59,142 nucleotides of DNA from an uncultured virus (IMG/VR IMGVR_UViG_3300028048_000084). Lineage: Duplodnaviria; Heunggongvirae; Uroviricota; Caudoviricetes. Under the pieces are notes generated by a model that ran no database searches, was not told the DNA's origin, and worked only from the letters and a program-made list of their open reading frames with translations. The DNA lies in the IMG/VR virus record IMGVR_UViG_3300028048_000084; one strand, written 5' to 3'. Each line of letters begins with the position of its first letter. The stretch's first letter is position 1. Of this stretch, positions 4,893 through 45,612 are shown piece after piece. A program made the translations under genes and the position numbers.

Positions 4893-5071
4893 AATTCACA
4901 TAGGAGGGCGGAAGCCCTCTTTTTATTTGCCTTAAATTTTTTCTAATTAAATTTTAAGGTTGATTGACTATTGTAAAATGTTTTATCAAATATCAAAATG
5001 TGAGCATAAAACATTTTACAGAAACACAAAAGTAAAAAAATACGTATGAATGATTCATACGTATTTGATAT

Positions 5072-6980: not shown

Positions 6981-7534
6981 ATTTACATCAGCACCTTTTT
7001 CATTATACTAAAAAAATCTATATATTTCTTATTAAAATTATTATATCCTAAAAGAAATATATAAATTTTTTGTTTATTTATCGTTATAATTTGGATGTTC
7101 TTCACTAATTCTTCGATATTTTTTATATGCCATTTTTTTAATTTCGCGAGAATCAAAATTTACAACTAATTTATATCCCTCTAATTTCGGAAAACGCTCA
7201 ATCGTTTTATTGCAAGGGATTCTGCTTCTTCAGCACTTTCCGCTTCTATTTCCACAACTGCAAAGGCAGGAAGTTCAACGACTACACTATACTTTTTCAT
7301 CCTAATCATGTCCTTTCTTTTGATGGGTTGTTTTTCAATTTCTGTATTTATTATAGCGCACAATGCACAATTTGTCAATAGGTTTTTTATATTTTTGATA
7401 AATTTGACCGAATAAAATGTGATAAATATTCGTATAAAAAATTTTACAAAAATTGTTTGTATACGAATTGTAAAATGTTTTATTTTATTGTGCAAATAAA
7501 AAGGACGGATATTGAATATCCGTCCCAAAGAGGA

Positions 7535-7804
7535 TTATTCGTCCTCGTCATCACCCCCAAACAGAGTGTCCCAACACTCCGCGCCCGTCCCGCTAATAAG
7601 CACCTCGCGCTCGTCAGCGTTAAGGAACGGACAGAGGTCTTGGATATGCCCCTCTCCATCTGCCCAACGCTCCACGGCATCGACCTGCTCGGCAGACTTA
7701 AGCAGGACGTAGTGGAACTTGCCACACACAGGGCAAGGCTTGGTGGACGCGCCCCACGTAACATCGCCAGAGACGAGACCCTTGTTTTTGATGATTGACA
7801 ACAT
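7535..7804 (-). CDS. small Zn-ribbon-like hypothetical protein
   Basis: CPVCGK and C-terminal ECWDTLFG; GGAGG RBS; terminator ~7500-7527. Confidence 0.7.
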   Translation of the reverse strand: MLSIIKNKGLVSGDVTWGASTKPCPVCGKFHYVLLKSAEQVDAVERWADGEGHIQDLCPFLNADEREVLISGTGAECWDTLFGGDDEDE

Positions 7805-8069
7805 AGTACATACCTCCTGTGAACTATCTCTTGTTCCCTTCGACACTTATATAATAGCATACTACGGAAAGTTTGTCAACACTTTTTTTATAAATCCTGC
7901 AAAAAAAATTTGCATCAACGTATGAAATTTGTCAAACATTTTATATCTAAAACCTTCAAAAAACATTCCTTTCTACTAAATTGAATGTTTTATCTACCAA
8001 TATATTATCAAATAATGTATACTCTGTCAATATTTTTGTATCAAAAATGTCTGAAAATTGTTTATGCTA

Positions 8070-8585
8070 TAAAAAAGCCTTGCGACTATCATATCGCAAG
8101 GCTTCTCTTTATTCTAAATAAGTATATATATAATATGAATTACTTAGCCCATTGGAACCATGTCCCTTCTATATAGATTGAAACCTAACTTTTCTCGAAC
8201 CATCGTGGTTAACATTTTTAAATAATAATAAAATATATATATATGTTCTCACTCGCTAAAGTTTATCTAGCTTTTTCTTCATCGTGTTCACTTCCTTTTC
8301 CCTTGGATTGATTATATTGTATCATAACTGAACTACTTTGTCAACAGTTTTTTAAATAATAATAAAATATATATGTTCTCACTCACTAGAGTTTATTCAG
8401 CTTTTTCTTCATTCTGTTCACTTCCTTTTCCCTTGGATTGATTATATTGTATCATAACTGAACTACTTTGTCAACAGTTTTTTAAATTTTTTTCTTTAAG
8501 GTATTAACATCATAAACAGTTCCGTTCAATTGTTTCATTTCCTTATCTCTGATTACATGATACCACACACAAAACAATTTGTCAA
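8070..8585 (-). ncRNA. putative non-coding/minigene transcription unit 1, with an ~135-bp tandem duplication
   Basis: three promoters, only tiny ORFs (MKKKLNKL*, MKKKLDKL*, MG*), terminator 8071-8105; modules shared with the 10515 and 17482 loci. Confidence 0.5.
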
Positions 8586-8709
8586 CACTTTTTTATAAAA
8601 AATGCAATTTTTTTGACCATAAAACATTTTACAATTTATAGAAACAGAAGTTTTGTAAAATGTTTTATGATAATATGGCAAATAAAAAAGAGGGTTTCCC
8701 CTCTTTTTG

Positions 8710-9045
8710 TTAAATACAACCGCCACATGAACCATGAATCCAATCACAATCGCTAATTGCGTCATACAGTTCTTCATACTGTGAAGAATCAATAGGAAGT
8801 GATTTGACCCATTGGTTTTTAGCCAACCATGCGTCAAACGGCAATCCCTGATGAACGGTTTCCCATACGTCTGCCCAATCTTCAAAATGCCATTGACGAT
8901 AGTCATTCTCCGTATTCATAGGAGAACCCTGCAAGTCAACAGGGATACAGTCAGAAACATCATTACCATCAATTGTAATTACCCAACGACCTGAACACAA
9001 GCAAGGATATGAGCCAGTCCATTCAACTTTGATTTCCTTTTTCAT
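8710..9045 (-). CDS. hypothetical protein with conserved Cys/Trp
   Basis: YPCLCSGRW ... GSCGGCI; own promoter, RBS and terminator. Confidence 0.75.
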   Translation of the reverse strand: MKKEIKVEWTGSYPCLCSGRWVITIDGNDVSDCIPVDLQGSPMNTENDYRQWHFEDWADVWETVHQGLPFDAWLAKNQWVKSLPIDSSQYEELYDAISDCDWIHGSCGGCI

Positions 9046-9199
9046 TTTACATCAATCCTTTCGCTCTCTCGTTCAACCTTATGTGTTTAGTATAACACAA
9101 AACATACATTTTGTCAACAGTTTTTTTATATTTGAAACAAAAAATTATGTTTTGATACATCATATAGAACAGACTACACGCATAAACAGAAACATGGAT

Positions 9200-9296
9200 T
9201 AAATCGCTTTATTTTCGCCTGTAAGGTGGTTTTACGATAAAAACAGGTATAGTTATATACAACAGTAAATAAAATCGCTTATACGCGAAATACGGA
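9200..9296. repeat. arm-core-arm palindromic site, copy 2
   Basis: core CAGGTATAGTTATATAC at 9244-9260; arms ttttcgcctgtaag / cttatacgcgaaat. Confidence 0.7.
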
Positions 9297-9703
9297 GTAA
9301 TTTAAATAATTACATAAATTTGCAACTGGATTTTTGTAAAATGTTTTATATACAAAAATGTAAAAAAGAGGATAGGCATATTACCCATCCTCTTTACTTT
9401 ACGAAAGAGTATACTCATAACCTTCCGTATACAGTACGATATAATATTCATGTTCACAATTCAAATTTACATAATCATCATATTCATCATCGTAAAACAT
9501 TTTACAAAAACGGTAAAGAATGTAAACGGTTTATTTTCGCGTTTCAAACACTAGCCTATATAACTATATGGATTAGCTCATAGAAAAGCTCACCGGGCAC
9601 GTGAGACAGTCTAAACGGATATTTTGCACGGTCAAAACGTGATAGAATATCAAAAAAGCAGGGACGTTTAATCCCTGCTATGTTTTAATCACTCTATTGT
9701 TAT

Positions 9704-10120
9704 TCACCTTTCATTCATAATTTCCATAAGTTCATGGAAATTGTCGTCAATCTCATCAAATCTTGAGATAACTTCCTGCATACCACAGGAATGACCTATG
9801 TCGTATGCAATAGAGAAAAGGCGGTCAAAAATCTTACGTCCATTAGGAAAATCCTTTGCGTAAGATTGCTGATATACCTTTTCACGGAATTCCTTTTCAA
9901 CGGCATTATATTCAGCACGTTGCTTTTCCTGTAGTTCTTTATACTCTGCTTTAAGCTGTTCCGAATATTTTTCTTTTCTTTCGGTAAGCTCTTTGATTGT
10001 TCCCGTTTGGGTTTCATCAAATTCTTTTAGCTTTTTATCAGAAAAATCTCGAAAAGAACTGGGATATTTCTGATAGATTTGATTATAAGACTCTTCGTAT
10101 TTTTTTACTTCTTCAATCAT
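9704..10120 (-). CDS. hypothetical protein
   Basis: GGAGG RBS, 138-aa ORF, terminator 9655-9680. Confidence 0.75.
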   Translation of the reverse strand: MIEEVKKYEESYNQIYQKYPSSFRDFSDKKLKEFDETQTGTIKELTERKEKYSEQLKAEYKELQEKQRAEYNAVEKEFREKVYQQSYAKDFPNGRKIFDRLFSIAYDIGHSCGMQEVISRFDEIDDNFHELMEIMNER

Positions 10121-10514
10121 GATATTTTATTCCTCCCCATTCAAATAATCAATAACTAACTTTAAAGACTGCTTTTGTTTGGAAATAATCTTCTTCCTTA
10201 ATTACAAATCCTTCTCCAACCAAAATCCTCTCCTTTGTAGAACCTGTTGTTTTCTCTATGGTTATATATTACCATATAATATCTATTTTGTCAACATCTT
10301 TTTTATAAATCTCAATAAAAATTTTTGCACTAATAACAAGACCAACAATAAATCCAATCATAATTTCCATTTTGTATACACCTTCCTTTCATCACCTATA
10401 TCATACCATATAATTACATGTTTGTCAAAATATTTTTTATCAAATAAAACATTTTACAATTTTGCCCCATCCATTTTTATTTGTAAAATGTTTTATTCGA
10501 TAAAGGTATTATAA

Positions 10515-10907
10515 AAACCGTGCGGATAGGGAATATCCTGCACGGTTCTCTTTTTATAATTTTATAATAAATCTAAACTTAATATATGTAATTTCTATTT
10601 ACTACATCTTACTCATTCCTTTCAAAATTGTTATTCACGCTAACACACTAGAAGTTTATCGGCATTTTATATCAAACAAATTTATTATAATTTATAACTA
10701 GCCCAATGGTATCAAATCCCTTCATTGTTATATATGTTAACAATCCTATTGATTGTACCCCATAAAGGTTATGGCATTTTAATATCAATAAAAATTTAAT
10801 AAAGTATTTTTTGTCGCTACAGACCTTCAAATAATTTTTTCATTTCTATCTGTCCTTTTGTTTGTATTGTTTGATTTTAATATATCATATTATAAAAGTT
10901 TTGTCAA
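10515..10907 (-). ncRNA. putative non-coding/minigene transcription unit 2
   Basis: promoter at ~10880-10907 with more stacked upstream; only minigenes; terminator AACCGTGC..GCACGGTT shared with the 17482 locus. Confidence 0.5.
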
Positions 10908-11340
10908 GATGTTTTTTATTGCTACGGTTCATTCAGACGTTTCATTGTTCTTACCTCCATTTCCTTGTTTCATCTTGTCTTTATTGTAGCACATCTTTTT
11001 TTTGTTTGTCAACACTTTTTTTGAACTTTTTTACCAACCCATGATTGCATCGTCCTTTCATCTTTTACATGAACCTTATCTCTTAACTATCTTTATTATA
11101 TCAGATAGAGAACATTTTGTCAAGATTTTTTTTTATGTTTTTATTTTTGACTTGATGTTGTTTGTTCCCTGTCTATGATTATAGTATAGCAAAGTATATA
11201 CTATTTGTCAATAGGTTTTGTATAATTAATTTTAAAAATTTTATCTAATAAAACATTTTACATAGTAATGGATAGGTCAATATTGTAAAATGTTTTATTA
11301 ACTCGCATATAAAAAAGAGGATATTACTATCCTCTAAACA

Positions 11341-11739
11341 TTAGTCTGTAATAGGGTTTTCTTTGTGAAACTCTTTGTAATTCAGATTGAATACACCTGC
11401 TACGCTATCTGTAAGCGTTTTACGGATATTTACGAAAAGCGTTTCAATTCGTAAATGCTTTGCAAGACGCTTGTACACATAGCCATTTTTCGTCTGCCAA
11501 CGCATAACAAGTCGAACTGCATCCTTGCCATTATCACGCATTTTATTCGTGCGTTTATCTACCGCCGAATAAATGAGAACATCAACCTTCGGATTTTTTG
11601 TTGCCATACGATATACATATTCGTATGTATCAACTTCAGGAACAAAATTACCAATATAGGCAAGATGATAAACATCTGCCATTTTACGCATGGTCTGTAC
11701 AAACTGTGCTTTTGTGTATCGCGTGTATTTCGTAGCCAT
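11341..11739 (-). CDS. hypothetical protein
   Basis: AGGAGG RBS before MATKYTR; own promoter and terminator. Confidence 0.75.
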   Translation of the reverse strand: MATKYTRYTKAQFVQTMRKMADVYHLAYIGNFVPEVDTYEYVYRMATKNPKVDVLIYSAVDKRTNKMRDNGKDAVRLVMRWQTKNGYVYKRLAKHLRIETLFVNIRKTLTDSVAGVFNLNYKEFHKENPITD

Positions 11740-11900
11740 GATGTATTTCCTCCTGTATTTCAAACCGTGTTTCTCTCTATGGTTATATATTACCATAGAA
11801 CGGATATTTTGTCAAGAGGTTTTTTATAAAAAAAGATATTTTTATAAAACATTTTACAAATCCATACAAAAAAAGCAGATACACAAGCATCTGCCACAAA

Positions 11901-12062
11901 TCAGACCCAACGTTTAAGCTCACGCTTTACATCCCTCTCGCGCTTCTGATTGCGCTTATCGGGGATAACCTTGCAAGCATACTGATTACTTGCAAGACTA
12001 GCAAGCGTAGGACTTGCATGGTGAACTTTATGGCGGGCATTTGCTTTTTCAATATTTGTCAT
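11901..12062 (-). CDS. small basic protein (53 aa), weakly ArfA-like; absent from the ORF track
   Basis: GGAGG RBS; MTNIEKANARHKVHHASPTLASLASNQYACKVIPDKRNQKRERDVKRELKRWV. Confidence 0.65.
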   Translation of the reverse strand: MTNIEKANARHKVHHASPTLASLASNQYACKVIPDKRNQKRERDVKRELKRWV

Positions 12063-12180
12063 CTTAAATCTACCTCCAAAGTGTTTAACATTTTATTTCT
12101 CTCTATGGTTATATATTACCATATATAAATAACTTTGTCAACACTTTTTTTATAATTCTTCATATCGTATAGCTCATATG

Positions 12181-12360
12181 TTATTCCTCCATAATAGACA
12201 GCTGTGCAATTTCATAGGAATCTGTATGACGGTCAAAATCCATATTATCCTCCCTGAATTCATCTAAGGCTTTTTCTGCTTGTGAGTGCGTTCTGTAAGC
12301 GCAATTATTTAACACCATATCACCATCAGGAAACATATGTGCAATAATAATATAGACCAT
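12181..12360 (-). CDS. small hypothetical protein (59 aa); absent from the ORF track
   Basis: GGAGG RBS and promoter; MVYIIIAHMFPDG..AYRTHSQAEKAL, resembles 15409 and 21178. Confidence 0.65.
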   Translation of the reverse strand: MVYIIIAHMFPDGDMVLNNCAYRTHSQAEKALDEFREDNMDFDRHTDSYEIAQLSIMEE

Positions 12361-12444
12361 TTTGATTACCTCCCTTTCGATGGTTTAATATTACCACGCT
12401 CTAGTCTATTTGTCAACACTTTTTTTATAGATTTTGTAGGCAAT

Positions 12445-12861
12445 TTAATAATTATGAAGTGCCATAGCAACCATAGTCATTTGATTCGTCAATGCTTTAC
12501 GTTCTTCTTTATTCATCCGTTTGTATTTTGTAAAGAACTTTTCTTCACGTTCTTTTTCATGTTCAAAACCATCATGATATTTAGGTAATGAATTTAACTG
12601 GTTGAATTTGAAGTAAGAAAATTTATCAAGCATATTTTTTTCATTTACAGTTAAATTCTGCTTGCGACTATAGTAATAAATTTTTTCCTTGAACGTACTA
12701 AGAACTAATGATAGTTTATTCACATACAAAGTTGTTTCATTCCTGAATGTTGCCTGTCTATCTTTATCAGATTTGATATAATCCAAAACACCACAATAAT
12801 ATGCCATATCGTTGATATACTGATAAAATTCATCTACCATTTTATTATCTGTTACATTCAT
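12445..12861 (-). CDS. hypothetical protein
   Basis: ORF directly downstream of 12877. Confidence 0.6.
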   Translation of the reverse strand: MNVTDNKMVDEFYQYINDMAYYCGVLDYIKSDKDRQATFRNETTLYVNKLSLVLSTFKEKIYYYSRKQNLTVNEKNMLDKFSYFKFNQLNSLPKYHDGFEHEKEREEKFFTKYKRMNKEERKALTNQMTMVAMALHNY

Positions 12862-12876
12862 GATAAAACCGTTTCC

Positions 12877-13308
12877 TTATACTTCTTCTGTTTCTTTCAT
12901 CATTTGACCAACTGATTTTTTCATAAAATCATAGCCTTTTTTCATTTTTGTTTCTGAATTGAAAGTTTCATCATGAATTAACTCATCAATCGTTTTTTGC
13001 TTTAATAGTTCTATTTCTTTGTTCATTTTATCAGAAAACATAAAATGGCTATATTTTTGATTGATTATCATACTAATCTGACGCTTGACCACTTTAGTAT
13101 AATTACTACGTAAGTGCCTTGTGGCACTAAATTTTTTTCTTTTTGTGTTAATACCATTGGCTAACTTATTTAGGTATTTGCATTTACCTAAATTGAACCT
13201 AATTTCCTCCATCTGTTTATATAGTTTTTTAGATGTTTGAACGTCCTTGTATGTTGCAATATCATTGTTGTCGTATTTCATATAAATTACTCCCCTTCGT
13301 ACATACAT
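12877..13308 (-). CDS. hypothetical basic protein
   Basis: ORF with promoter ~13325-13352. Confidence 0.6.
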   Translation of the reverse strand: MYVRRGVIYMKYDNNDIATYKDVQTSKKLYKQMEEIRFNLGKCKYLNKLANGINTKRKKFSATRHLRSNYTKVVKRQISMIINQKYSHFMFSDKMNKEIELLKQKTIDELIHDETFNSETKMKKGYDFMKKSVGQMMKETEEV

Positions 13309-13434
13309 TTCCTTTTGTACTTACAGTATACACGATTCATCGACAAAAGTCAAGCATTATTTTATTTATTTTCGTGTATAAAACATTTTACATAATATGC
13401 TAGGCATAGTTTTTGTAAAATGTTTTATTTTTAT

Positions 13435-13530
13435 ACGCGCTAGAAACGCGCTACAAACGGTAAAACAAGTTAGTGCATATAATTATACCTATTCTATCCT
13501 GTAATACGTTCTACGCCCATTCTAGCGTGT
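13435..13530. repeat. arm-core-arm palindromic site, copy 4
   Basis: core GCATATAATTATACCT at ~13476-13490; arms gctagaaacgcgctac / ctacgcccattctagc. Confidence 0.7.
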
Positions 13531-13578
13531 TTTAGACATATAAAAACAGGAGGGATTTTATTCCCTCCTGCCTATTTT

Positions 13579-14271
13579 TTATAGTTCCATCAAGAACCCT
13601 GCTTTTTTTGCTTTATTCTTTCCTACACCGTGAACTGGGAAACAAACAACAGATTTTCTGTCTTTTTTCCAACACTTACAACAGTTTACACATTGAATAT
13701 TTTTGTAAATTGTGGCAGGACATTGTGTAAACGTAATACCATCAACTTTACGTATTGCCTTGCTCATAGTATCAACCGCAAGAACGGCATTTACACCTGC
13801 TTTATGGCATTTCTTGACCTGCTCAATGTTTTCGCAAGAAAAATTGATAATAAAGCCTGCTTTTCTTGCTTCTTTCACGATTGCAATGTTGCGTTCACTA
13901 GGTACACAATGTGTGTAAGTGTAAACGATATGACCTTTATACGCTTGCATAAGCGTATGTACAAGTTTTTCGTCGATATTGCTTGTTCCTTCTTTAGCAA
14001 TATCGCCAGCTACATTATGACGAATAACAGGTGTGCAGGGATTATTTTCAACTACCTGTTTCAAATTTTCTGGAGTAGTAACATTGTTGCCCTCTCCCCT
14101 GTCAACTTTGCGCCAATGAATAGCGCAAGGTCCAGACTTTGCATAGCAACCGTTGCACTTAAATTTGCAACTGGTTGGGCAGGTGTTACTTGAAGTATAT
14201 GTTTGTGACATAGCACCTGTCTTGATGTTTTTAGAATTAGAAACGAATTTGATAAAAGTCTGCGTTGCCAT
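13579..14271 (-). CDS. Cys-rich phage protein of GP88/radical-SAM-like type
   Basis: N.KTG, TCPTSC...GCYA, RHNVAGD, YTYTH, CPA...C..C..C motifs. Confidence 0.6.
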   Translation of the reverse strand: MATQTFIKFVSNSKNIKTGAMSQTYTSSNTCPTSCKFKCNGCYAKSGPCAIHWRKVDRGEGNNVTTPENLKQVVENNPCTPVIRHNVAGDIAKEGTSNIDEKLVHTLMQAYKGHIVYTYTHCVPSERNIAIVKEARKAGFIINFSCENIEQVKKCHKAGVNAVLAVDTMSKAIRKVDGITFTQCPATIYKNIQCVNCCKCWKKDRKSVVCFPVHGVGKNKAKKAGFLMEL

Positions 14272-14574
14272 TTTGAATTACCTCCATTGTTGAACCGTTC
14301 GATTAGGTTTCTCTATTTCCCTAACCTTTGATTACATTATAACTCTTGTTCGTTCTTTTGTCAAGAGGTTTTTTATATTTTTGATTTTTTCTTTTTCCCT
14401 CTGACAGTTATTATATTACACCTATAATAACTTATTGTCAAGCATTTTTGTATAAACTTTTTTTGCGAATAGACGATATAAAACATTTTACAATCAGTTT
14501 GTGTATAGTGCATTATGTAAAATGTTTTATGTTTTTGGCAAAATAAAAAAGCAGGCTTTCGCCCGCCTTTTATA

Positions 14575-14772
14575 TTAGAAACCGCTATTCTGATAATCGA
14601 TAATCATTTGTTCTGTCTCCTTCATCAAATCTTCATACTCTGAAAGTGAGCAAGCGTGCATAGCACCAAACAGTAAACAATTAATGTCTCCTGCCAAACC
14701 GTCATTGTGTTTGGCAATTTCGGAAATTGCAATTTCCATATCTGCTACCGTCATCATTGTACTTACCTCCAC
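14575..14772 (-). CDS. small hypothetical protein
   Basis: GGAGG RBS, promoter, terminator. Confidence 0.65.
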   Translation of the reverse strand: MEVSTMMTVADMEIAISEIAKHNDGLAGDINCLLFGAMHACSLSEYEDLMKETEQMIIDYQNSGF

Positions 14773-14934
14773 TTGAACTCTTTGTTTTCCTATCTATGGT
14801 TATAGTATAGCAAATATAGATATATTTGTCAAGAACTTTTTTATAAAAAAATAAAAAATTTTTATACATAAAACATTTTACATAATCGCCTATATAAAAA
14901 TACCCTGCTAGTAGAGTTAGCAAGGTATCAATAA

Positions 14935-15276
14935 TTAGTCTACATATGTTACATAGCGCGTATATGCAAATTCTTTATTAGCAGGGTCATTTTGAAGTTT
15001 TTTGAATTTACCGACAAGACAGAAAACTTTGGCATCCTCTGTATTGTTATATAAAAAATTGTCAATTTTATTAAGTTTCATCTTCTCTGTAAATACCTTT
15101 TCAATGGCTTTTTTCTTGCGTTCGGAACACTTAATCCACTTTGCATTATCCTCATTTTCAACAATGTTAAAAACACCATTGATAGCAGGAAAGTGCATTT
15201 TGTTTGTCATATCAATCATTGGATAATACCTCCTGTAGAACAACAACCTGTATTTGATTTCTCTCTTAGTATACAT
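14935..15276 (-). CDS. hypothetical protein (likely start at MIDMTNK)
   Basis: AGGAGG RBS at ~15230. Confidence 0.65.
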   Translation of the reverse strand: MYTKREIKYRLLFYRRYYPMIDMTNKMHFPAINGVFNIVENEDNAKWIKCSERKKKAIEKVFTEKMKLNKIDNFLYNNTEDAKVFCLVGKFKKLQNDPANKEFAYTRYVTYVD

Positions 15277-15408
15277 CTACTGTCAATTCAATTCAACAGA
15301 TATACGATTATAGATTGAATAAAATTATATTAGAAAAATTGGCATAGTTAATTATGTATAAAACATTTTACAAAAAGCACCCTATGATTTTTCATAAGGT
15401 GCTTTCGT

Positions 15409-15639
15409 TTAATCCTGTGTTTTTACTTCTTCAAAATGCAACCACTTATCCCACGTTGCATCCATATAATCATTCTGCTCTAAGCAAGCGTGTAAATCTT
15501 TCCCCTCAAAATCTTCACCGTATTTTTCAATAGCACTTGACACAAACGCTTCAAACGCTTTCTGCGCGGTGTATTTATCACGATAATAAATATACTTTGC
15601 ATCACCCTGCACACATTTTGTAATTACATATAAATTCAT
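15409..15639 (-). CDS. small hypothetical protein similar to 21178..21411
   Basis: YVIT...D.YTAQKAF...CLE vs WVVT...DKEKAKNMF...CME. Confidence 0.65.
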   Translation of the reverse strand: MNLYVITKCVQGDAKYIYYRDKYTAQKAFEAFVSSAIEKYGEDFEGKDLHACLEQNDYMDATWDKWLHFEEVKTQD

Positions 15640-15839
15640 AATTTACACTCCGTTATATTCATTTTCTGTTTATGGAATAATTTTTCAATTTTATTATACA
15701 CGATTTTTGGTATTTTGTTCTTTGCTTCGTTTAATGTTGAACTACTACCACGCTCCAGCAAAAGAAAAAGGTCGTTTTCAACCAAATCCCTTATTCCGGG
15801 AATCGATTGAGCCCGACCTTTTTCAACCTCAAATTTCAT

Positions 15840-16133
15840 TTACCCGATATAATACCATTCATTATAACAATTCCTCACGCTATCCATAGTCATCGTCAAA
15901 GGTGCGTTTGTTCCATCACCACGGATAATTTCAAACTGTGTATTACCAATAGATTTTTTCAAACGATTGTTTACCCAACTATCCATAGTCAGATTACCTG
16001 CAAATTTACGTTCATAAGAATAATCATTAAATTGTTGTTTATCGCTTTTAGCGCGAATAACAACTGTAATATTTTCAATATCTTTAATTTTGCGCTCAAT
16101 TTCTATAGCAGTAAACATAATGATAACCTCCAA
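15840..16133 (-). CDS. hypothetical protein
   Basis: GGAGG RBS and promoter. Confidence 0.65.
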   Translation of the reverse strand: MEVIIMFTAIEIERKIKDIENITVVIRAKSDKQQFNDYSYERKFAGNLTMDSWVNNRLKKSIGNTQFEIIRGDGTNAPLTMTMDSVRNCYNEWYYIG

Positions 16134-16316
16134 TTACATATCAACTGTATATTCTTTGTTCAATTTCTATATATAGTATAGCATACACAAAATTACTTGT
16201 CAATAGTGTTTTGAAAAAATCTAAAATGTTTTGTAGAACATGCGTTAAATTGAATAAAACATTTTACAAAGGCGCATAACAAAAAAAAGAGGGTTTCCCC
16301 CTCTAAGATGTTTTAT

Positions 16317-16401
16317 CAAAATGAAAAACCCCCCACTTCTAAGCTACAAGGTCAGCCGATAGGCTGAGTGAATAGCCTCTACAGGTGGGGGAGGAAGTCA
16401 A
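16317..16401 (+). mobile_element. 85-bp IS200/IS605-family miniature element (left and right ends fused)
   Basis: preceded by TTTAT; left-end-like CCCCCACTTCTAAG, right-end-like AGGTGGGGGAGGAAGTCAA, matching the ends of the 18710 and 41142 elements. Confidence 0.65.
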
Positions 16402-16889
16402 TTTAGTTCATACGAATATGTTTCGTTTGGCATCCAAAGGTGGAAAGTAAGAATATACTCTGTTTCGTATTCTTCTTCGTATTCTTCCCCTTCGTCATCT
16501 TCTTCCGTCTCTGTATACGTTTCAGTTTCCGTATACAATTCCTGTTGTTCCAATCCTTCTCCCCAACCATCGGAATACTGTCCTTCTGTGTATTCGACCA
16601 ATTTTTCTGCTTCTTCATCTGTTACATCATGGTCAAATACAAATGTCATTTTCGTATTGCCATTATCATCCATTTCAAAATCAACAGACTTCGTACCTGT
16701 CTGCTCCTTGAAAATAGCGAAAACCTCTTTTTTATCTTCTTCGACAATCCCCTGTAACTTTTCCCACGCTTCAGGATAAAATTCCATCACGTCTTTTACA
16801 GAAATTTCATTTTCTGCACTATTGTAACCATTGTCATAGTCAGTCATAACAAAATGTGCTTTGCCTTTAACAATAACCGTGTTAGCCAT
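16398..16889 (-). CDS. highly acidic hypothetical protein (GQYSDGWGEG motif)
   Basis: long E/D tract ETEEDDEGEEYEEEYE; own promoter and RBS. Confidence 0.75.
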   Translation of the reverse strand: MANTVIVKGKAHFVMTDYDNGYNSAENEISVKDVMEFYPEAWEKLQGIVEEDKKEVFAIFKEQTGTKSVDFEMDDNGNTKMTFVFDHDVTDEEAEKLVEYTEGQYSDGWGEGLEQQELYTETETYTETEEDDEGEEYEEEYETEYILTFHLWMPNETYSYELN

Positions 16890-17052
16890 GATTGCATTTT
16901 CCTTTCTTTTTTAAACCTTTGTTTTCTCTCTATGGTTATATATTACTACAAAACGATGGATTTGTCAAGAAACTTTTTATGTATACAAAAAAATAAAACA
17001 TTTTACAGAGTGAATAGTGACATTCTGTAAAATGTTTTATAAGTTAGATATT

Positions 17053-17358
17053 TTATTTTGCATATTTCGTTTGTGCATATTTCATACCTTTTGAATATTC
17101 ATCTGTAAACGGTTTATTTGTGTTGTAAATATTCAAGTAGTAGTTATATATACTCTGCATTTGATAATGGGCTAGAGCAAGCAATAGACCGTAATAAACA
17201 CCATCATACCATCTTATTTTATCCCTCAAATTATCCATATTATCTATATCGTTGTTTCGTTCATACACTTGATACTGTCCACGAATAAAGCTCAATTTGC
17301 TCCACGCACTATCTAATTGATTTGTAATTGTTTTTAATTCTGCTTTTGATGTTTCCAT
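17053..17358 (-). CDS. hypothetical protein (start METSKAE)
   Basis: GGTGA RBS; the upstream ORF-track extension crosses a terminator and repeats and is spurious. Confidence 0.6.
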   Translation of the reverse strand: METSKAELKTITNQLDSAWSKLSFIRGQYQVYERNNDIDNMDNLRDKIRWYDGVYYGLLLALAHYQMQSIYNYYLNIYNTNKPFTDEYSKGMKYAQTKYAK

Positions 17359-17481
17359 ATATATTTCACCTACCATAATTTTTATGTCAATAATATAAAT
17401 AACGCTAGTGACTGCTTTTATAATCACTAGCGTTATAACATAGTGTAGGTTGTAAAATGTTTTATGGAAAATGAACAATAT

Positions 17482-17870
17482 AAAAACCGTGCGGATATGG
17501 AAAATCCAGCACGGTTTCATTTGATTTAATAAATTTTTAATATATATAATTATAGTCGCTACATTGTTCTCAGCCTTCCCATCATGGTTATTCACGCTAA
17601 CCTAGAAGTTTATTTCGGCATTTTTAATAAATTTATTTTAATTATAGTTATTCATGCTACGGTTTATTGTTTGCTTTTTTCATAATCTAATCCCCATTGT
17701 ACTTATAAATTGTTATCATGTTGACATTTTTAACACGTCCACATACAAAAGCGTGCTTTTTGTCAACATACCAGCAAAAGCATTATCTGTGTTTTAATTG
17801 CCCATTGGTATCATCCCCTCTCTTTCATCTTATGCCTTTATTCTAACACATCTTGATTACTTTGTCAAGT
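17482..17870 (-). ncRNA. putative non-coding/minigene transcription unit 3
   Basis: promoter TTGACA-N17-TAGAAT; modules and terminator homologous to the 10515 locus. Confidence 0.5.
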
Positions 17871-17877
17871 ATTTTTT

Positions 17878-18156
17878 TTACATGCCTAATGCTTTGAGTA
17901 TATTGTCAATAACATAATCCCAATCCGTAATTGCAAACAAGGTAATAATCGTGCTGATTACAATATCCTTTAACACTTGACGATTATGATTACGGCTGAC
18001 AACTTTCTTCATATAATTATCCCAACGCAAGTCTGCCTGTGCCTGTGCATAAACATCCTCTTTGCTCATTTTGTTCATATAGTTCTGATACATGATAACC
18101 AATTCCTTTCTACTTTGCTTGTCTCTGTTTTCCTTTCGATGGTTATATAATACCAT
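17878..18156 (-). CDS. small membrane protein
   Basis: C-terminal hydrophobic segment IVISTIITLFAI. Confidence 0.6.
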   Translation of the reverse strand: MVLYNHRKENRDKQSRKELVIMYQNYMNKMSKEDVYAQAQADLRWDNYMKKVVSRNHNRQVLKDIVISTIITLFAITDWDYVIDNILKALGM

Positions 18157-18588: not shown

Positions 18589-18709
18589 TTTAATCTACCT
18601 TCCTTGAACTGTTCTCTGTTGTTCTCTATGATTATATATTACTACATATAAACCATTTTGTCAATAGATTTTTTATATCTATGAAAGAAAAATTTTGACA
18701 TGTATAAAT

Positions 18710-19058
18710 TTGACATCCTCTCCCACCTCTTTAGGTTGGAGATTCCTACTTCTCAGACCGTAGCGTATGTGATTTCATCACATTTCGTCTTACACAATCT
18801 CCATAGGCTTAGTTTTATACTGATTCCGCAAGCCCTGCGGTACAGTTTTTATATGGTTTAGGCTACTGAAAGTAGCCTTTTACCATCTTTTAAGATATTT
18901 GAATTTGTATACTTTTAGCATTTTGTTTTACCTCCTTTGTTTAAATTGTATCACTATTTGTGAAAATAGTCAAGAGTTAATATTAGTCATCCCCCACTTT
19001 CGTTACTCGGTAGCCTAACGGCTACCTCTTAACTTAGAAGTGGAGGTATTCTCTTACG
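18710..19058 (-). mobile_element. tnpB: internally deleted IS200/IS605 (tnpB-type) element retaining left end, promoter, tnpB N/C stubs and omegaRNA-like right end
   Basis: TTTAT, then left-end hairpin, TTGACT-N17-TACAAT, AGGAGG, MLKVYKFK (TnpB-like N-terminus) joined out of frame to a ..ILKDGKRLLSVA* C-terminal stub, a structured tail, and ...GAGGATGTCAA. Confidence 0.8.
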
Positions 19059-21492: not shown

Positions 21493-21906
21493 ATAACGCA
21501 AAAACCGCCTACCTAAAAGGTGGCGGTTAGTGCGAGAGATAAACAAAATATAGTAAGATAACGCCCGTGGTTTATGCAAACAGTAACCGTTCTTAAAGTC
21601 TGTAACGAATTACAAACAGTTTTACTTAGTTTAATACTTGTCGCAAATGGAGGTGAGCTAAACAAGTACCATTGACACTCCCCACGGCTAAAGCCGGGGG
21701 ATTCTTGGTTCAATAACCACTGCGCCGCCTCCGAAGAATTGGCGTCTTACACGATTTCCCCAAGCGTGAATTCCCGTGTGCCCCACGGTATATGTTACCC
21801 GCCTTATATCCCCATAGTTGAAGCTAGGGGTTTTACGGCGGTTTTGATAAAACCTGCCTTGCATATTAATAGGTGGTTCAAGCCTACCCACTTGTTTTTG
21901 CGTTAT
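21493..21906 (-). other. structured element bounded by 13-bp perfect inverted repeats (ATAACGCAAAAAC), hosting an IS605 MITE
   Basis: IRs at 21493-21505 and 21894-21906; GC-rich hairpins near both ends; promoter ~21945-21975. Confidence 0.55.
21672..21846 (-). mobile_element. non-autonomous IS200/IS605 miniature element with tnpB 3'/omegaRNA-like right end
   Basis: TTTAT then CAAAACCGCCGTAAAACCCCTAGCTT left end; translates to TnpB C-terminal-like TVGHTGIHAWG and NQESPGFSRGECQ; ends GTGGGGAGTGTCAA. Confidence 0.8.
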
Positions 21907-24683: not shown

Positions 24684-24932
24684 TTATAATTCGCGTAAAT
24701 ACTTTTTAATTTCATTAAATGCTGGTCGTTCATCTACTCCACTAATGTTAATTACCAATATTTGATTCGGTAAAATACATAAGTCTAAAACACTTAATAT
24801 ACTTTTTGCATTGGCAGAATTGTTATCATTATAAACCTTAATACTTGCATGATATTTCTGTGCTATCTTTGCTAAACCTCCGCACTCTCTCAAACTCAAA
24901 CGCTTGTGAGATTGCTCTATTAAATTAACCAT
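24684..24932 (-). CDS. HPr-family phosphocarrier-like protein lacking the catalytic His15
   Basis: 82 aa; ANAKSILSVLDL (Ser46 signature) and I.G.DE..A; LSLR in place of LHAR. Confidence 0.8.
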   Translation of the reverse strand: MVNLIEQSHKRLSLRECGGLAKIAQKYHASIKVYNDNNSANAKSILSVLDLCILPNQILVINISGVDERPAFNEIKKYLREL

Positions 24933-25079: not shown

Positions 25080-25484
25080 TTATTCAATAGCGATATACTT
25101 ATCTTCCTGTTTTTCGTCCTTATTAACAGTAATGGTTAAAATACCATCTTTCAAATTAGCTTTAATATCCTGCTTGTTCATGTTAGGAAGTCTAAAGCTA
25201 CGTGACACCTTGCTATAACTTCTTTCGTGACAAAGATACTTCTTATCATCCTTTGTATCTTCCTTGTGTTCAACTGCAATTGTCAGAACGTCATCCTTAG
25301 TTGATACTTTAATATCATTCTTGTCAAAACCTGCAACCTCCGCAGTAACAATATATGACTTTTCTGTATCTTCTACGTCACATTTCATATCTTGATGTAC
25401 TTGTGGAAACTTAAATCCATCAAAAAATCCATCATTAAAAATACTATCCATTTCTTTGTTTTCAAAAGGAATTAAACCAAACAT
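25080..25484 (-). CDS. Hsp20/alpha-crystallin small heat-shock protein
   Basis: DVEDTEKSYIVTAEVAGFDK.DI, ERSYSKVSRSFRLP, A.LKDGILTI. Confidence 0.92.
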   Translation of the reverse strand: MFGLIPFENKEMDSIFNDGFFDGFKFPQVHQDMKCDVEDTEKSYIVTAEVAGFDKNDIKVSTKDDVLTIAVEHKEDTKDDKKYLCHERSYSKVSRSFRLPNMNKQDIKANLKDGILTITVNKDEKQEDKYIAIE

Positions 25485-26421: not shown

Positions 26422-26988
26422 TTATACACGTTCCACGACTTCAAAATCCATGCTTTTCCAATTACGGATATTGGCACGAAAACCATGATGGACAGAACGT
26501 AAACCTTTCGTTCTACGTTTACCATAGGGATTCCCATCAACAATACGGAATGTATCTTCTTCAACGTCATTACCAAAGTGGAATGGTTTTTTGAATTTGA
26601 TAACTGTTCCCATAGCAAGGGATTTGACCATTTCTTTACGAGAAAGAACCTTATGAACGGTTTCCCTCCACTCTTTTGACCAATCATTGCAAGGTTCACT
26701 CTGTTCTACGATTTTCATAATTCTTGCAGGACAGTTATAGTAATATGGATTTACTGATTCGTCCATGTCTTTGTAAGAGAAGTTATAATAGTCATCTCTT
26801 TCAAAATGTACCCTGCAAACGAGTGCAAAGTACTGTTTCTTAGACGGAATGTAAACTGCCCTGTAATACTCACTCATATTGACGAGTGCGCCTTTTGAGG
26901 CGAATTTGAAATCCGTGCTTTCAAATTCTTTCTCAAAAAACTCGTCAACCGTCATTCCATAATCCTTGTGCGAAGAAGTCCAACCCAT
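26422..26988 (-). CDS. DUF6927-like protein
   Basis: MGWT start, YYRAVY, FALVC, NFSYKDMDESVNPYYYNCP. Confidence 0.7.
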   Translation of the reverse strand: MGWTSSHKDYGMTVDEFFEKEFESTDFKFASKGALVNMSEYYRAVYIPSKKQYFALVCRVHFERDDYYNFSYKDMDESVNPYYYNCPARIMKIVEQSEPCNDWSKEWRETVHKVLSRKEMVKSLAMGTVIKFKKPFHFGNDVEEDTFRIVDGNPYGKRRTKGLRSVHHGFRANIRNWKSMDFEVVERV

Positions 26989-27584
26989 GATAATTACCTC
27001 CTGTTTCTAAACCTTATCTCTTAACTGTCTTTATTATATCAGATAGAGAACGCTTTGTCAAGAACTTTTTTATTTTTTTTGTTTTTGACTTTGTGTTATT
27101 TGTTCCCTGTCTATGGTTATAGTATAGCAAACTACAAGTATTTTGTCAAGAAGTTTTTTATATTTTTGGCAGAAAAATTTTTGTCATAAAACATTTTACA
27201 ATTTCGTATATACATATACAAAATAGGGAGAAATGATTTTCATTTCTCCCTACATTTCTCCCCAACTTGATTTATTTATATCTTTTTTTATTTTTTTCTC
27301 GTATAGCTATTATTGATGTTCAGTTTATTAACAATATCAAATGCTTTCATCAAGTAGTTATTCATTTTTTGATTACCTTCATCAATTCATATAATTTGTT
27401 TCCATTTCCTTATCTCTGTAAACAGTATAGCATATAGCACTATGTTTGTCAAGAATTTTTTTATGTATACAAAATACACAAGTTTGATTTTCAAGCAATA
27501 AAACATTTTACATTTTACACATACGGTTTTATGTGTAAAATGTTTTATATAAAAAACGGAAGAATTTTGCTTCTTCCGTTTTTT

Positions 27585-43649: not shown

Positions 43650-43961
43650 TTAAATATGTTTAATTCTCTCCATCACTTCATGACGTTTTGAATTATTCCA
43701 CGTAGACAGGTCACCTGTAAGATAGCCGGTGATGCGTCTAATTCTTTCAATCTTTGGCTTATCTTGTACGTATTTAATATCAATATCTACATTCTTTTCA
43801 TCTGCTTTTGATACAATTACTTCATCAATTGTACCTTCTTTATCTTCCTTATGTTCTTCTGCATAATCAAGAAAGTTTTTTGCAAAAGCAGTATCAATAA
43901 CCTGTTCATCATCGAAACCGTTAAATACAATGTGTTTTTTATCAATGTCAAATTCTTTCAT
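43650..43961 (-). CDS. nrdD: stand-alone NrdD glycyl-radical domain
   Basis: IERIRRITGYL...WNNSKRHEVMERIKH, the NrdD C-terminal glycyl-radical motif. Confidence 0.85.
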   Translation of the reverse strand: MKEFDIDKKHIVFNGFDDEQVIDTAFAKNFLDYAEEHKEDKEGTIDEVIVSKADEKNVDIDIKYVQDKPKIERIRRITGYLTGDLSTWNNSKRHEVMERIKHI

Positions 43962-43974
43962 ATATTATCACCTT

Positions 43975-44328
43975 TTACGAATTTAAAGTTTTCTTTAAAG
44001 TATTGCTAATTTTATCTTTAATTTCTTGAGGGGGGTCATTCGCTTTTTTTACATTCAACAAATCATAATCTTTTTCATACATTTCTGTATATAATTTTTC
44101 TAATTTATCTGCTTCATTTTGTGTACTACAATCCACAATCGGAAGTATATCTAAATCATCAAAATTATATTTGCTAATTTGTCTATCAGGATAAGTATAA
44201 TCTCCTGAATGATGTTGAATTAAGCGTCTGTGCAAACTGTTTGTTGTTTGTCCTATATAAATTACATTATTTGTATTCTTATCTATAATTTTATAGATAC
44301 AGAATTTCTTTGAATATTCTTTTTCCAT
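43975..44328 (-). CDS. GIY-YIG endonuclease (short)
   Basis: CIYKI...IYIGQT...RRLIQH ... E; paralog of the nuclease domain of 44508. Confidence 0.8.
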   Translation of the reverse strand: MEKEYSKKFCIYKIIDKNTNNVIYIGQTTNSLHRRLIQHHSGDYTYPDRQISKYNFDDLDILPIVDCSTQNEADKLEKLYTEMYEKDYDLLNVKKANDPPQEIKDKISNTLKKTLNS

Positions 44329-44507
44329 ATATTTACCTTCTTACGTCTCATATTTCTCGTCTCTGTTTGTTTATTTATCTATGTCTTTAATTACATATAA
44401 CGAAAACATTATATTAACCAATCCAAAGATAAACATAACTAAACAATATATAAATGTAGCATCCATATTGTGTTACCCATTAATTAAATAATTAATGTAA
44501 TTTTATT

Positions 44508-45560
44508 TTACTTATCTGTGCAACCACAACCAATATCGCTCAAAGAAAATAAATTATAAACATAATCATAATGAAATCCATTAATAGGCATTTTGTTTTT
44601 ACAAAGATTAGCCAACTTGGTTCTTTCAATTTTTAATTTTCGACTAAGCTCTTTCATAGAACGAAAAATAATATGCGTTTCTATACAAATTACTTTATGA
44701 TAATTTTGCACATAAAACATTCTTTTTTTTATATCCTCATTACTCATTTTATCATAGTCAGTTTTAAATACCCAAACATTTTTTCCAAATTGACCGTTTA
44801 ATTTACATTGAGTTAAAATATAACTGCTTCTTGTGTTATATTTTTTTGAAGCATCGGATACAGAATTAAAAACTTCTTTTGTATTTAATAAAACAACAGA
44901 TATTTTTATTTTATGGTGTGAACCAATTTTTTCTTTTGTAATACAACTATGTTTTCTTCCTAATTGGGCTTTTGACATATTTGCTTTCGCTTTTTCTGTA
45001 TGTTTATATCCAATTAGTGATTTTCGTATTTTTGTTTTTGTTTTTTCATCAAATTTGTTGCCAATTTTTATATTCAACAAATTAAATTTTCTTTGATATT
45101 CTTTTATATATTTTTCTTCTAATATATCTGATTCGTTTTTATTATCTGTATCAATTATTGGTACAATAATTAAATCTTTCTTATTATATTTTTTTAATTC
45201 AACATCTGCATATGTTGAATAATTAGATAAATGTTGTATTAATCTTGTATTTAACGAACTCGTTGTTTTTCCAACATATAAAACATTATTTGTCTTTTTA
45301 TTAACAATTTTATATATACAATATTTTTTTGAATATTCTTTTTTCTTTTTGTCTTTATTAGGAGGAATGATGTTTTTATATGAATTATCATCAACAAATT
45401 CCCAACGCAATTTAACTCCATTTATCTTACCACAATAAGAATTTTTATGTTTACAACATAACAAAATATTACTTCTATTTATGTTATAAAATTTAGATGC
45501 TTCACCAGAAGAATTAAATATTTCACCTGTAGTTGTACAAACTACTCTTTTTGATTTCAT
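44508..45560 (-). CDS. GIY-YIG homing endonuclease with NUMOD-type DNA-binding repeats
   Basis: CIYKI..LYVGKT..RLIQH; KHTEKAKANMSKAQLGRKHS (NUMOD3-like); GEIFNSSGEAS and EVFNSVSDAS (NUMOD1-like). Confidence 0.85.
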   Translation of the reverse strand: MKSKRVVCTTTGEIFNSSGEASKFYNINRSNILLCCKHKNSYCGKINGVKLRWEFVDDNSYKNIIPPNKDKKKKEYSKKYCIYKIVNKKTNNVLYVGKTTSSLNTRLIQHLSNYSTYADVELKKYNKKDLIIVPIIDTDNKNESDILEEKYIKEYQRKFNLLNIKIGNKFDEKTKTKIRKSLIGYKHTEKAKANMSKAQLGRKHSCITKEKIGSHHKIKISVVLLNTKEVFNSVSDASKKYNTRSSYILTQCKLNGQFGKNVWVFKTDYDKMSNEDIKKRMFYVQNYHKVICIETHIIFRSMKELSRKLKIERTKLANLCKNKMPINGFHYDYVYNLFSLSDIGCGCTDK

Positions 45561-45612
45561 AAGCACAACTCCATTTTTCGTTTCATAACTATCGTCTCTG
45601 TTTTTAACACTT

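Follow-up and report, generated by a model that had tools for sequence, protein, structure and literature searches.

The analysis concerned a 59,142-nucleotide stretch of DNA (hereafter the window) from an uncultured virus of the Caudoviricetes (IMG/VR record IMGVR_UViG_3300028048_000084), which is a section of an AT-rich jumbo phage with a presumably early, cassette-shuffled region. Three transcription units on its minus strand, unit 1 (8070-8585), unit 2 (10510-11211), and unit 3 (17480-17868), carry promoters, terminators, and recurring short modules (a, b, and c) and contain no long open reading frame (ORF), as an initial annotation had stated. They form a group of transcribed RNAs that bear minigenes, show modest conservation, and come from a single phage lineage. 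The sole relative of the window in IMG/VR is a 281-kb genome that is 98% complete (G001). A metagenome scan returned 31 loci, in which L065 (unit 1), L073 (module b), and L058 were new homologues; L058 is a diverged allele that holds nearly all modules of units 2 and 3 within one 0.8-kb locus. Two further loci, L059 and L067, are 98-100% identical to the window, may represent its source strain, and were not used as support.

Unit 1 is an ORF-less transcription unit with three promoters, two c-minigenes, module a, and a terminator. Its first promoter (8557-8585) is TTGACA-17-TATCAT with an extended -10, and a 130-bp tandem duplication of promoter, Shine-Dalgarno (SD) site, and c-minigene (8215-8487) carries the promoters at 8474 and 8344. 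One c-minigene (8386-8412) encodes MKKKLNKL with CTC as its last codon and TAG as its stop, followed by TGA, and has an SD pairing energy of -11.1 kcal/mol; the other (8256-8282) encodes MKKKLDKL and ends in CTT and TAG-C. Module a (8144-8167) consists of an SD and MG-stop (8144-8152, TAA). The intrinsic terminator at 8070-8104 (-21.2 kcal/mol) was flagged by the scanner on the plus strand only. Module b is absent from unit 1.

Unit 2 had been given a start at 10907, but it extends upstream to about 11211 and has four promoters, with -35 elements at 11211, 11123, 11012, and 10907. Positions 11031-11227 repeat the leader, with its tandem promoters, of the gene at 26988 (85% to 27010-27165). At MGW-stop (11031-11042), which like MKRLNEP-stop was missing from the original inventory, this leader and the first three codons behind it run into the end of another gene: the last bases are those of the gene located before the locus in L001 and L058, and the junction is a shared 9-base word. 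An RNA contig without mismatches (X16, 10600-11123) spans the junction, and an assembly error is therefore excluded. Judged from its sequence, MGW-stop is a recombination scar, and shuffling can generate minigenes here. Downstream lie the c-minigenes MKRLNEP-stop (10922-10945; Glu-Pro-stop, CCG TAG-C, with a TAA one codon on; MKRMNEP-stop in L058) and MKKLFEGL-stop (10817-10843; CTG TAG-C; MKKIFEGL-stop in L058), an MP-stop without SD that is followed by two small hairpins (10730-10777; TAA, replaced by TAG in L058), and module a (10698-10721) with an SD and TTG-Gly-stop (10698-10706; TAG, replaced by TAA in L058). Module b (10629-10668) has three conserved blocks, no SD, and a 3' hairpin of 5 bp and 7 nt (10629-10645). 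It is followed by an SD and a start-stop, ATG TAG (10602-10622, frame at 10602-10607), then TAA, and the terminator (10510-10547, -19.0 kcal/mol). An open frame of 52 codons in unit 2 has no counterpart in L058, where the longest frame has 26 codons.

Unit 3 has one promoter (17840-17868), followed by module a (17794-17825) with an SD and MGN-stop (17794-17805, TAA), at the equivalent place of which L058 and G001 carry MF-stop. A long hairpin (17717-17770, -17.5 kcal/mol) is found only in unit 3, with no counterpart in the relatives compared, and holds a TTGACA -35 hexamer in each arm, one per strand. The c-minigene MKKANNKP-stop (17657-17683; CCG TAG-C) corresponds to MKKVYNKP-stop in L058. 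Module b (17586-17624, hairpin at 17586-17602) has a 2-base insertion relative to unit 2, and an SD with start-stop ATG TAG-C (17559-17580, frame at 17559-17564) and a terminator (17480-17516, -23.8 kcal/mol) complete the unit.

The modules recur largely as first described, with corrections. The original pattern for module a matches units 1 and 2, but unit 3 has its core at a shorter spacing, and the copy in unit 2 starts with TTG rather than ATG. The core, CCAWTGGGC, a motif picked after the fact, occurs three times in the window, once per unit, where 0.30 occurrences were expected and none of 100 shuffles reached three. Module b with an SD-led start-stop was present in units 2 and 3 as described, but the ATG in the 5' part of module b has no ribosome site. 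The claimed SD-led eight-codon MKK frame was found as a c-type minigene in each unit, but lengths are 7-8 codons (MKRLNEP has 7), and unit 1 has two through its duplication. Units 2 and 3 share 14 GC-containing 9-mers, compared with 0.4 in shuffles (0/500), and by this sequence comparison are clearly homologous in their 3' part. Unit 1 shares one 9-mer with unit 2 (169/500 shuffles) and three with unit 3 (16/500), and no GC-containing 7-mer is common to all three units; it appears weakly linked, through module a and a c-type minigene only. The terminators of units 2 and 3 were not flagged by the scanner, and all three terminators fold with U-rich tails. The reported sharing of a terminator by units 2 and 3 was confirmed and extends to G001, L058, and L073; in an alignment of four distinct sequences, 98% of pairs were kept, with one both-sides and one one-side change (139/500 shuffles, not significant alone).

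Transcription was assessed from contigs of one DNA run and three RNA runs; the RNA runs have different study codes but may come from one campaign. Such contigs reveal neither the strand nor the ends nor the level of a transcript, and RNA libraries can contain DNA. As far as contigs can show, all three units are transcribed. Unit 2 was covered by RNA contigs without mismatches in all three RNA runs (X13, X16, and X17), and X17 also held a variant contig over unit 2 with gaps resembling those of L058. Unit 3, which lay outside the stretch used to pick the runs (7800-11400), was covered by an RNA contig without mismatches at 17557-17808 (X17) and a DNA contig without mismatches at 16772-18155. 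For unit 1, an X13 RNA contig of a near-identical variant (4 differences) covered 7962-8416 and extended past the terminator. Contig depth cannot rank parts and was not used as evidence, as the runs had been selected using 7800-11400: among the matches listed, depth was 18.5-118 for RNA contigs without mismatches over units 2 and 3 and 2.9-12.9 for contigs with 0-1 mismatch over genes, and the promoter-less bin 9235-9601 had 0.4-1.1 in the RNA runs and 99 in the DNA run. Part of 7800-11400 was contained in 20 of the 21 runs listed, most of them labelled bovine gut.

Homologous loci in G001, L058, L065, and L073 are likewise ORF-less. Homologues of unit 1 were found in G001 (L011) and L065, in both of which the duplicated 130-bp segment is single copy, and the homologue of unit 2 is L058:748-1590. 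Unit 3, the L058 locus, and a G001 locus occupy the same genomic position, downstream of the same gene, and represent three alleles. The window allele runs module a, hairpin, c, b, start-stop, terminator; the L058 allele runs c, c, MP-stop, a, folded insert, promoter, MF-stop, folded insert, c, b, start-stop, terminator; and the G001 allele runs MF-stop, a protein gene with a DUF1281_C domain, b, start-stop, terminator. As the three differ in content, modules have been exchanged between strains, with module b, the start-stop, and the terminator as the constant part. This part is kept in units 2 and 3, L058, L073, and G001, and stands behind a protein gene in the last two. The two folded RNA inserts of L058 (L058:1060-1190 and L058:1240-1375; z -2.4 and -3.3), the second of which can form a pseudoknot-like fold, had no Rfam match and no copy in the window or G001, and a folded insert had no match in IMG/VR.

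No Rfam family, GenBank phage, or IMG/VR contig besides G001 matches the units. Rfam gave no match to the window at the gathering score, and at E<=5 only sub-threshold matches outside the modules of the units. IMG/VR scans with all modules, the inverted repeat, and neighbor genes matched G001 alone; IMG/VR also held two distant RNA-ligase relatives, one of which (G002) was searched and had no match. Among GenBank phages there was no near match to 8-18 kb, and distant searches returned short pieces only, mostly promoter or terminator. A generic pattern of promoter plus MK...TAG-C returned 76 loci, one of which (unit 1 of G001) had an in-frame minigene, a -10 box, and an SD. Three matches from a GTDB scan lay in unrelated bacterial genomes of 44-58% GC and were judged from their flanks to be chance. 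Outside the cassette region, G001 has six further promoter-proximal SD-led mini-frames, one ending in TAG, and none was found in the window at 34.5-59 kb.

Eleven frames in the three units consist of an SD, a start, up to eight codons, and a stop. Their SD pairing energies, computed with an anti-SD tail, range from -5.8 to -11.7 kcal/mol, compared with a median of -1.1 for 426 antisense ATGs; for 18 gene starts (two of these positions not ATG), 15 pair at -4.4 to -15.2 and three at about zero. The ATGs of MP-stop and module b had no SD in this computation. Codon conservation was examined in three pairwise comparisons (unit 2 with L058, unit 3 with L058, and the two copies within unit 1), which include the SD-less MP-stop and leave out the module b frame, which is not conserved. 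Over these few, partly dependent copies, start, last, and stop codons differed at 3 of 60 sites, compared with 59 of the remaining 343 transcribed sites (Fisher p=0.012, counting substitutions only) and 10.4 differences expected at base-matched rates; with gaps counted, the figures were 3/60 and 76/360 (p=0.002). All three differences were synonymous, comprising two TAA/TAG swaps and one CTC/CTT. Middle codons varied at 8 of 69 sites, and c-minigene length stayed at 7-8 codons despite this change. The conservation of start, last, and stop codons relative to L058 would fit an action on ribosomes, tRNAs, or a release factor, in keeping with the minigene-array reading of the initial annotation.

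The frames also differ from genes in how they end. TAG proved as uncommon in long genes as had been noted, ending 2 of 65 minus-strand ORFs of at least 95 amino acids in the window and 9 of 243 long ORFs in G001, and as frequent in the minigenes, ending 8 of the 11 that are SD-led, compared with 155 of 835 intergenic mini-ORFs without SD. UAG-C is a poor context for termination. For nine amber stops in the window, which include the SD-less b frame of unit 2, C follows in five (background 19/134, p=0.007), and a backup stop lies within two codons in six (background 21/134, p=0.0015). The last codons of the c-minigenes are CCG, CTG, CCG, and CTC or CTT. Counted from the rarest of the 61 codons in G001 genes, CTG, CTC, and CCG come 4th, 5th, and 6th, and they are the last codon of 2, 0, and 0 of 243 genes, respectively, whereas CTT comes 31st; among 793 background mini-ORFs, 10% have one of the 16 rarest codons in last place. 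Pro or Gly is the final residue of several minigenes (Pro in MKRLNEP and MKKANNKP, Gly in module a of units 1 and 2).

Our tentative preference, held at somewhat less than even confidence, is that the units are translated RNAs that would hold ribosomes at amber stops and drain host tRNAs and release factor 1 (RF1) that the phage scarcely needs. Host polymerase would make unit transcripts of 0.25-0.65 kb, whose conserved job would be 1-8 codons of translation followed by slow termination. Ribosomes would load at good SD sites, meet a Pro, Gly, or rare Leu codon with an amber stop in weak context, and linger; short peptidyl-tRNAs might then drop off in the style of lambda bar, or RF1 might stay occupied. 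The load would land on host mRNAs, tilting translation to the phage, because the last codons of the 7-8-codon minigenes and TAG are those that phage genes avoid. A more specific version is possible but distinctly more doubtful: an RNA-only takeover device, in which minigene arrays matched to Leu-CAG, Leu-GAG, and Pro-CGG tRNAs and RF1 would starve the host codon-selectively without a phage protein. The 15 tRNAs of G001 include Leu TAA (two), Leu CAA, Gly TCC, and Lys TTT, and none for CAG, GAG, any Pro, or Phe; the anticodons ATT and TAT are also in the set. No tRNA gene was found in the window. T-even phages reportedly destroy host tRNA-Leu(CAG), which would be a precedent. Release is inefficient after Pro and Gly, and Glu-Pro-stop stalls in E. 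coli (PMC7246954; for Pro-stop stalls also PMC13410324). Minigenes of up to eight codons sequester the tRNA of late codons (PMC2490762) and can shed peptidyl-tRNA, starving the cognate codon (PMC2490762, PMC8012679).

Several points weigh against this proposal. Collapsed to module types, TAG ends two of four (p=0.16), and the c-minigenes are probably paralogues, so the codon tests share the same dependence. The final codon of module a is GGC, AAT, or TTT, and the phage itself depends on the corresponding tRNAs (G001 having no Phe tRNA), and CTT makes up 15% of phage Leu codons. Module b, the sole part kept at all five loci of the unit 2/3 type, carries no SD, and its frame is shifted in unit 3; only one of the four c-minigene types occurs in G001; and all unit homologues belong to one phage lineage. 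A low-GC host would itself use CTG, CTC, and CCG little, and a general ribosome sink would slow the phage too. From published work, two-codon UAA minigenes are the most toxic and 7-8-codon UAG ones weaker (PMC8708949); eight of the 11 minigenes end in UAG, five are 7-8 codons long, and MG-stop of unit 1 alone has the most toxic form. The minigene effect required a Pth-defective system (PMC2490762), and in Mycoplasma Glu-Pro-stop gave no drop in expression (PMC7246954). Our literature search of open-access sources returned no description of phage minigene arrays, and the available parts of PMC8244752, PMC7824862, and PMC10192219 contain nothing on them.

The module b observation leads to the alternative that survives best, which we consider possible although unlikely: ribosome-protected small RNAs, in which an SD and minigene at the transcript head act as a stabiliser (a bound or paused ribosome blocking decay) and module b with the swappable hairpins forms the payload, as protein decoys or antisense RNAs. 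An SD-led minigene lies within about 35 transcribed bases after five of the eight unit promoters (six with the scar), and SD-dependent stabilisation is known from SP82 phage RNA and STAB-SD in Bacillus (PMC7509114). The constant part of the alleles, the folded inserts of L058, and the conservation of the module b blocks despite their missing SD and frameshift, with one both-sides change in the 5-bp hairpin of unit 3, all speak for such a payload. Its structure is less persuasive: the consensus structure of module b is almost nil (-2.6 kcal/mol), its single covarying pair was equalled in 121 of 500 shuffles, unit 1 has no module b, no Rfam family matches, and the whole fold of unit 3 is no better than shuffles (z -0.16). 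The fold of unit 2 including its terminator has z -2.2. Stabilisation also needs no amber stop, rare last codon, or backup stop. It is nevertheless compatible with the preferred proposal of ribosomes held at amber stops, and both may hold together.

Recombination itself might account for the units, as neutral PeSL-like debris of cassette shuffling in which promoters, SDs, gene starts, and terminators were joined after gene loss; this is improbable, at about half the weight of the stabiliser. The array is shuffled, with its 58 promoters and 52 repeat arms; MGW-stop arose in this way; genes commonly start with MKK; and unit content depends on the strain, G001 having a protein gene inserted at the unit 3 position. 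A comparison with 904 ORF products of the window and its relatives gave no gene remnant apart from the MGW scar (best non-self match E=0.015). Scars would not be expected to converge on a rare codon and TAG-C, and start, last, and stop codons are conserved beyond neighboring sites. Between c and the terminator, the identity of unit 3 to L058 is 69%, compared with 60% for the adjacent gene and 56% for a cassette spacer, but three other neighbor genes reach 74-77%, and overall identity alone is therefore no proof of selection.

Slightly less probable again is an anti-defence decoy, in which ribosomes paused on Lys codons and UAG would absorb RelE-superfamily RNases or similar translation-targeting defences. 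E. coli RelE cuts UAG, UAA, and CAG codons in the A site, but RelE-family specificity is not strict (PMC7180214), and a catalytic RNase is hard to titrate. The units sit among small cassette-region genes of no assigned function, and G001 carries RNA-repair genes (an RNA ligase, RlaP, and a CCA-like polymerase), both of which would suit such a role. We regard as more improbable still that the 7-8-residue cationic peptides are themselves the products, as arrest peptides in the exit tunnel or inhibitors of host proteins. Four of five amino-acid changes between homologues are conservative (L/M, L/I, A/V, and N/D; N/Y is not) and the length is fixed, but the four types share little beyond MK, their middle codons vary as given above, and the start-stop and two-codon modules yield no peptide. 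Type III antitoxin RNA mimics (pseudo-ToxI), which the initial annotation had offered and which a phage non-coding RNA with recurring short modules brings to mind given the phiTE precedent (PMC3475682), are very improbable, as there is no tandem repeat of about 36 nt (only the 130-bp duplication and repeats of up to 15 bases), no Rfam match, and no H-type pseudoknot in any of six module segments (five from the window, one from L058) in a scan for stems of 4 or more bp with 3 or more GC pairs and a span of up to 60, which weaker stems escape.

Other candidates were rejected. An amber-recoded phage (code 15) was not supported, as ORF cover barely shifts in core regions when TAG is read as sense and CTA is absent from the 15 tRNAs. 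No Pfam match to a release factor or Pth was found in 288 of the 301 G001 ORFs of 90 or more amino acids, with 13 left out that are mostly suspected shadows. A CsrB-like sponge with GGA in hairpin loops was not found; the units hold 5-9 GGA each, with no Rfam match. Positions 32-33 of an anticodon loop are Y-U, and the module b hairpin was set aside as an anticodon-loop mimic, its loop having G-C there. CRISPR-repeat, 6S, and replication-origin readings found no support.

The units lie in a cassette array (0.7-34 kb) that repeats the order gene, terminator, inverted repeat, and one or two near-consensus promoters, and whose gene order is shuffled relative to G001. The units had been called strongly promoted; their promoters do match the consensus, but this is not special among 58 consensus promoters in 1-34.5 kb. 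Nineteen of the 58 are separated by over 200 bases from the nearest following SD-led ORF of at least 40 amino acids, and eight of these are unit promoters. The unit promoters are of the sigma-70/sigma-A type, and such host-type promoters suggest early expression. The sole hints of a host, which may belong to the Bacillota, are the extended -10 elements of the promoters and an IS200 transposase that has 85% identity to a cluster including Solobacterium and Sharpea members. A 14-base arm, ATAAAACATTTTAC, occurs in 52 copies, mostly as inverted pairs 10-35 bases apart, between the terminator and promoter of almost every cassette; it is confined to the cassette region in both genomes (window 723-34154, G001 at about 160-213 kb), and its inverted repeat was found in no contig besides G001 in the IMG/VR scans. 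The arm is likely an operator or recombination signal.

The window further encodes a split nrdD with homing endonucleases, an RNA ligase, Hsp20, and numerous small genes of no assigned function. The nrdD gene (43650-52905) lies in five or more pieces, separated by genes for HNH and other homing endonucleases; the interruptions are probably introns and an intein, and Rfam reported no intron in this region at the gathering score. The set in G001 is different. SD-led start-stop frames also occur at 9047-9052, 6983-6988, and 27250-27255, two of them directly before the next ATG, and are possibly translational couplers or chance. GC-richer palindromic stretches at 21520-21880, 18700-19040, and 16330-16400 resemble IS200/IS605-type ends without element genes. 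A small ORF resembling the PTS HPr protein (by eye, with no PHROG match) adjoins the Hsp20 gene at 24684-24932 and 25080-25484. Near 5000, the coding strand and GC skew flip and the two arms of the cassette region converge. In G001, L005-L007 and L014-L016 mark a large block of glycosyltransferase, radical SAM, and carbamoyltransferase genes, with a TET-associated glycosyltransferase, PARG, NADAR, and NusG.

Host shut-off by phages is usually credited to proteins, and frames of 1-8 codons escape annotation. If the RNAs act through translation, minigene toxicity, known chiefly from lambda bar and laboratory constructs, would be a purpose-built and possibly codon-selective phage tool, and the TAG avoidance, skewed codon use, and own tRNAs of large phages would be joined in one testable model. 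The elements are shorter than 30 bases, and point changes in the start, last codon, and stop could separate the rival models. Even as ribosome-protected RNAs, the units would form an uncatalogued small-RNA family.

Lambda bar loci are single two-codon frames ending in UAA, with an effect visible in Pth-defective hosts. The units share with bar and with synthetic toxic minigenes the phage origin, SD-led ORFs of 1-8 codons, an expected slow termination, and a last-codon tRNA that would be sequestered. Unlike bar, the window has several minigenes placed one after another in promoter-terminator units of their own; most of them stop at UAG-C, they are duplicated and conserved, and the same RNA also contains a non-translated module. 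The comparison with bar made at first thus holds for short SD-led frames, but most frames here have 7-8 codons and UAG, against the two-codon UAA rule (PMC8708949); as that feature is missing and drop-off is only inferred, the units were not filed as a bar-type member. With known Pro-stop stalls they share the Glu-Pro-stop of MKRLNEP, the Lys-Pro-stop of another c-minigene, and the Gly ending of module a in units 1 and 2, but the known examples concern the C-termini of complete proteins or selected reporters rather than phage minigenes of 7 residues (PMC7246954, PMC13410324). The phiTE pseudo-ToxI is likewise a phage non-coding locus with a repeated short sequence (PMC3475682), from which the units differ in having no 36-nt tandem repeats, pseudoknot, or known cognate toxin. 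The 5' SD stabilisers of Bacillus (SP82 polypurine, STAB-SD, and the ermC leader; PMC7509114) resemble them in a strong SD near the RNA 5' end and probably in a Gram-positive host; these protect downstream mRNA and need no productive translation, whereas no gene follows in the window units and their last and stop codons are constrained. The closest likeness in setting is to PeSL cassettes in hyperplastic regions of T4-type phages, where a repeated strong promoter and terminator surround small dispensable genes and are shuffled by recombination (PMC2839356). The window likewise has repeated promoter and terminator cassettes shuffled from strain to strain; its spacers carry the inverted repeat. 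PeSLs are spacers between genes, whereas the transcribed content of the units is non-coding and conserved; PeSL-like shuffling explains the setting of the units and the MGW scar.

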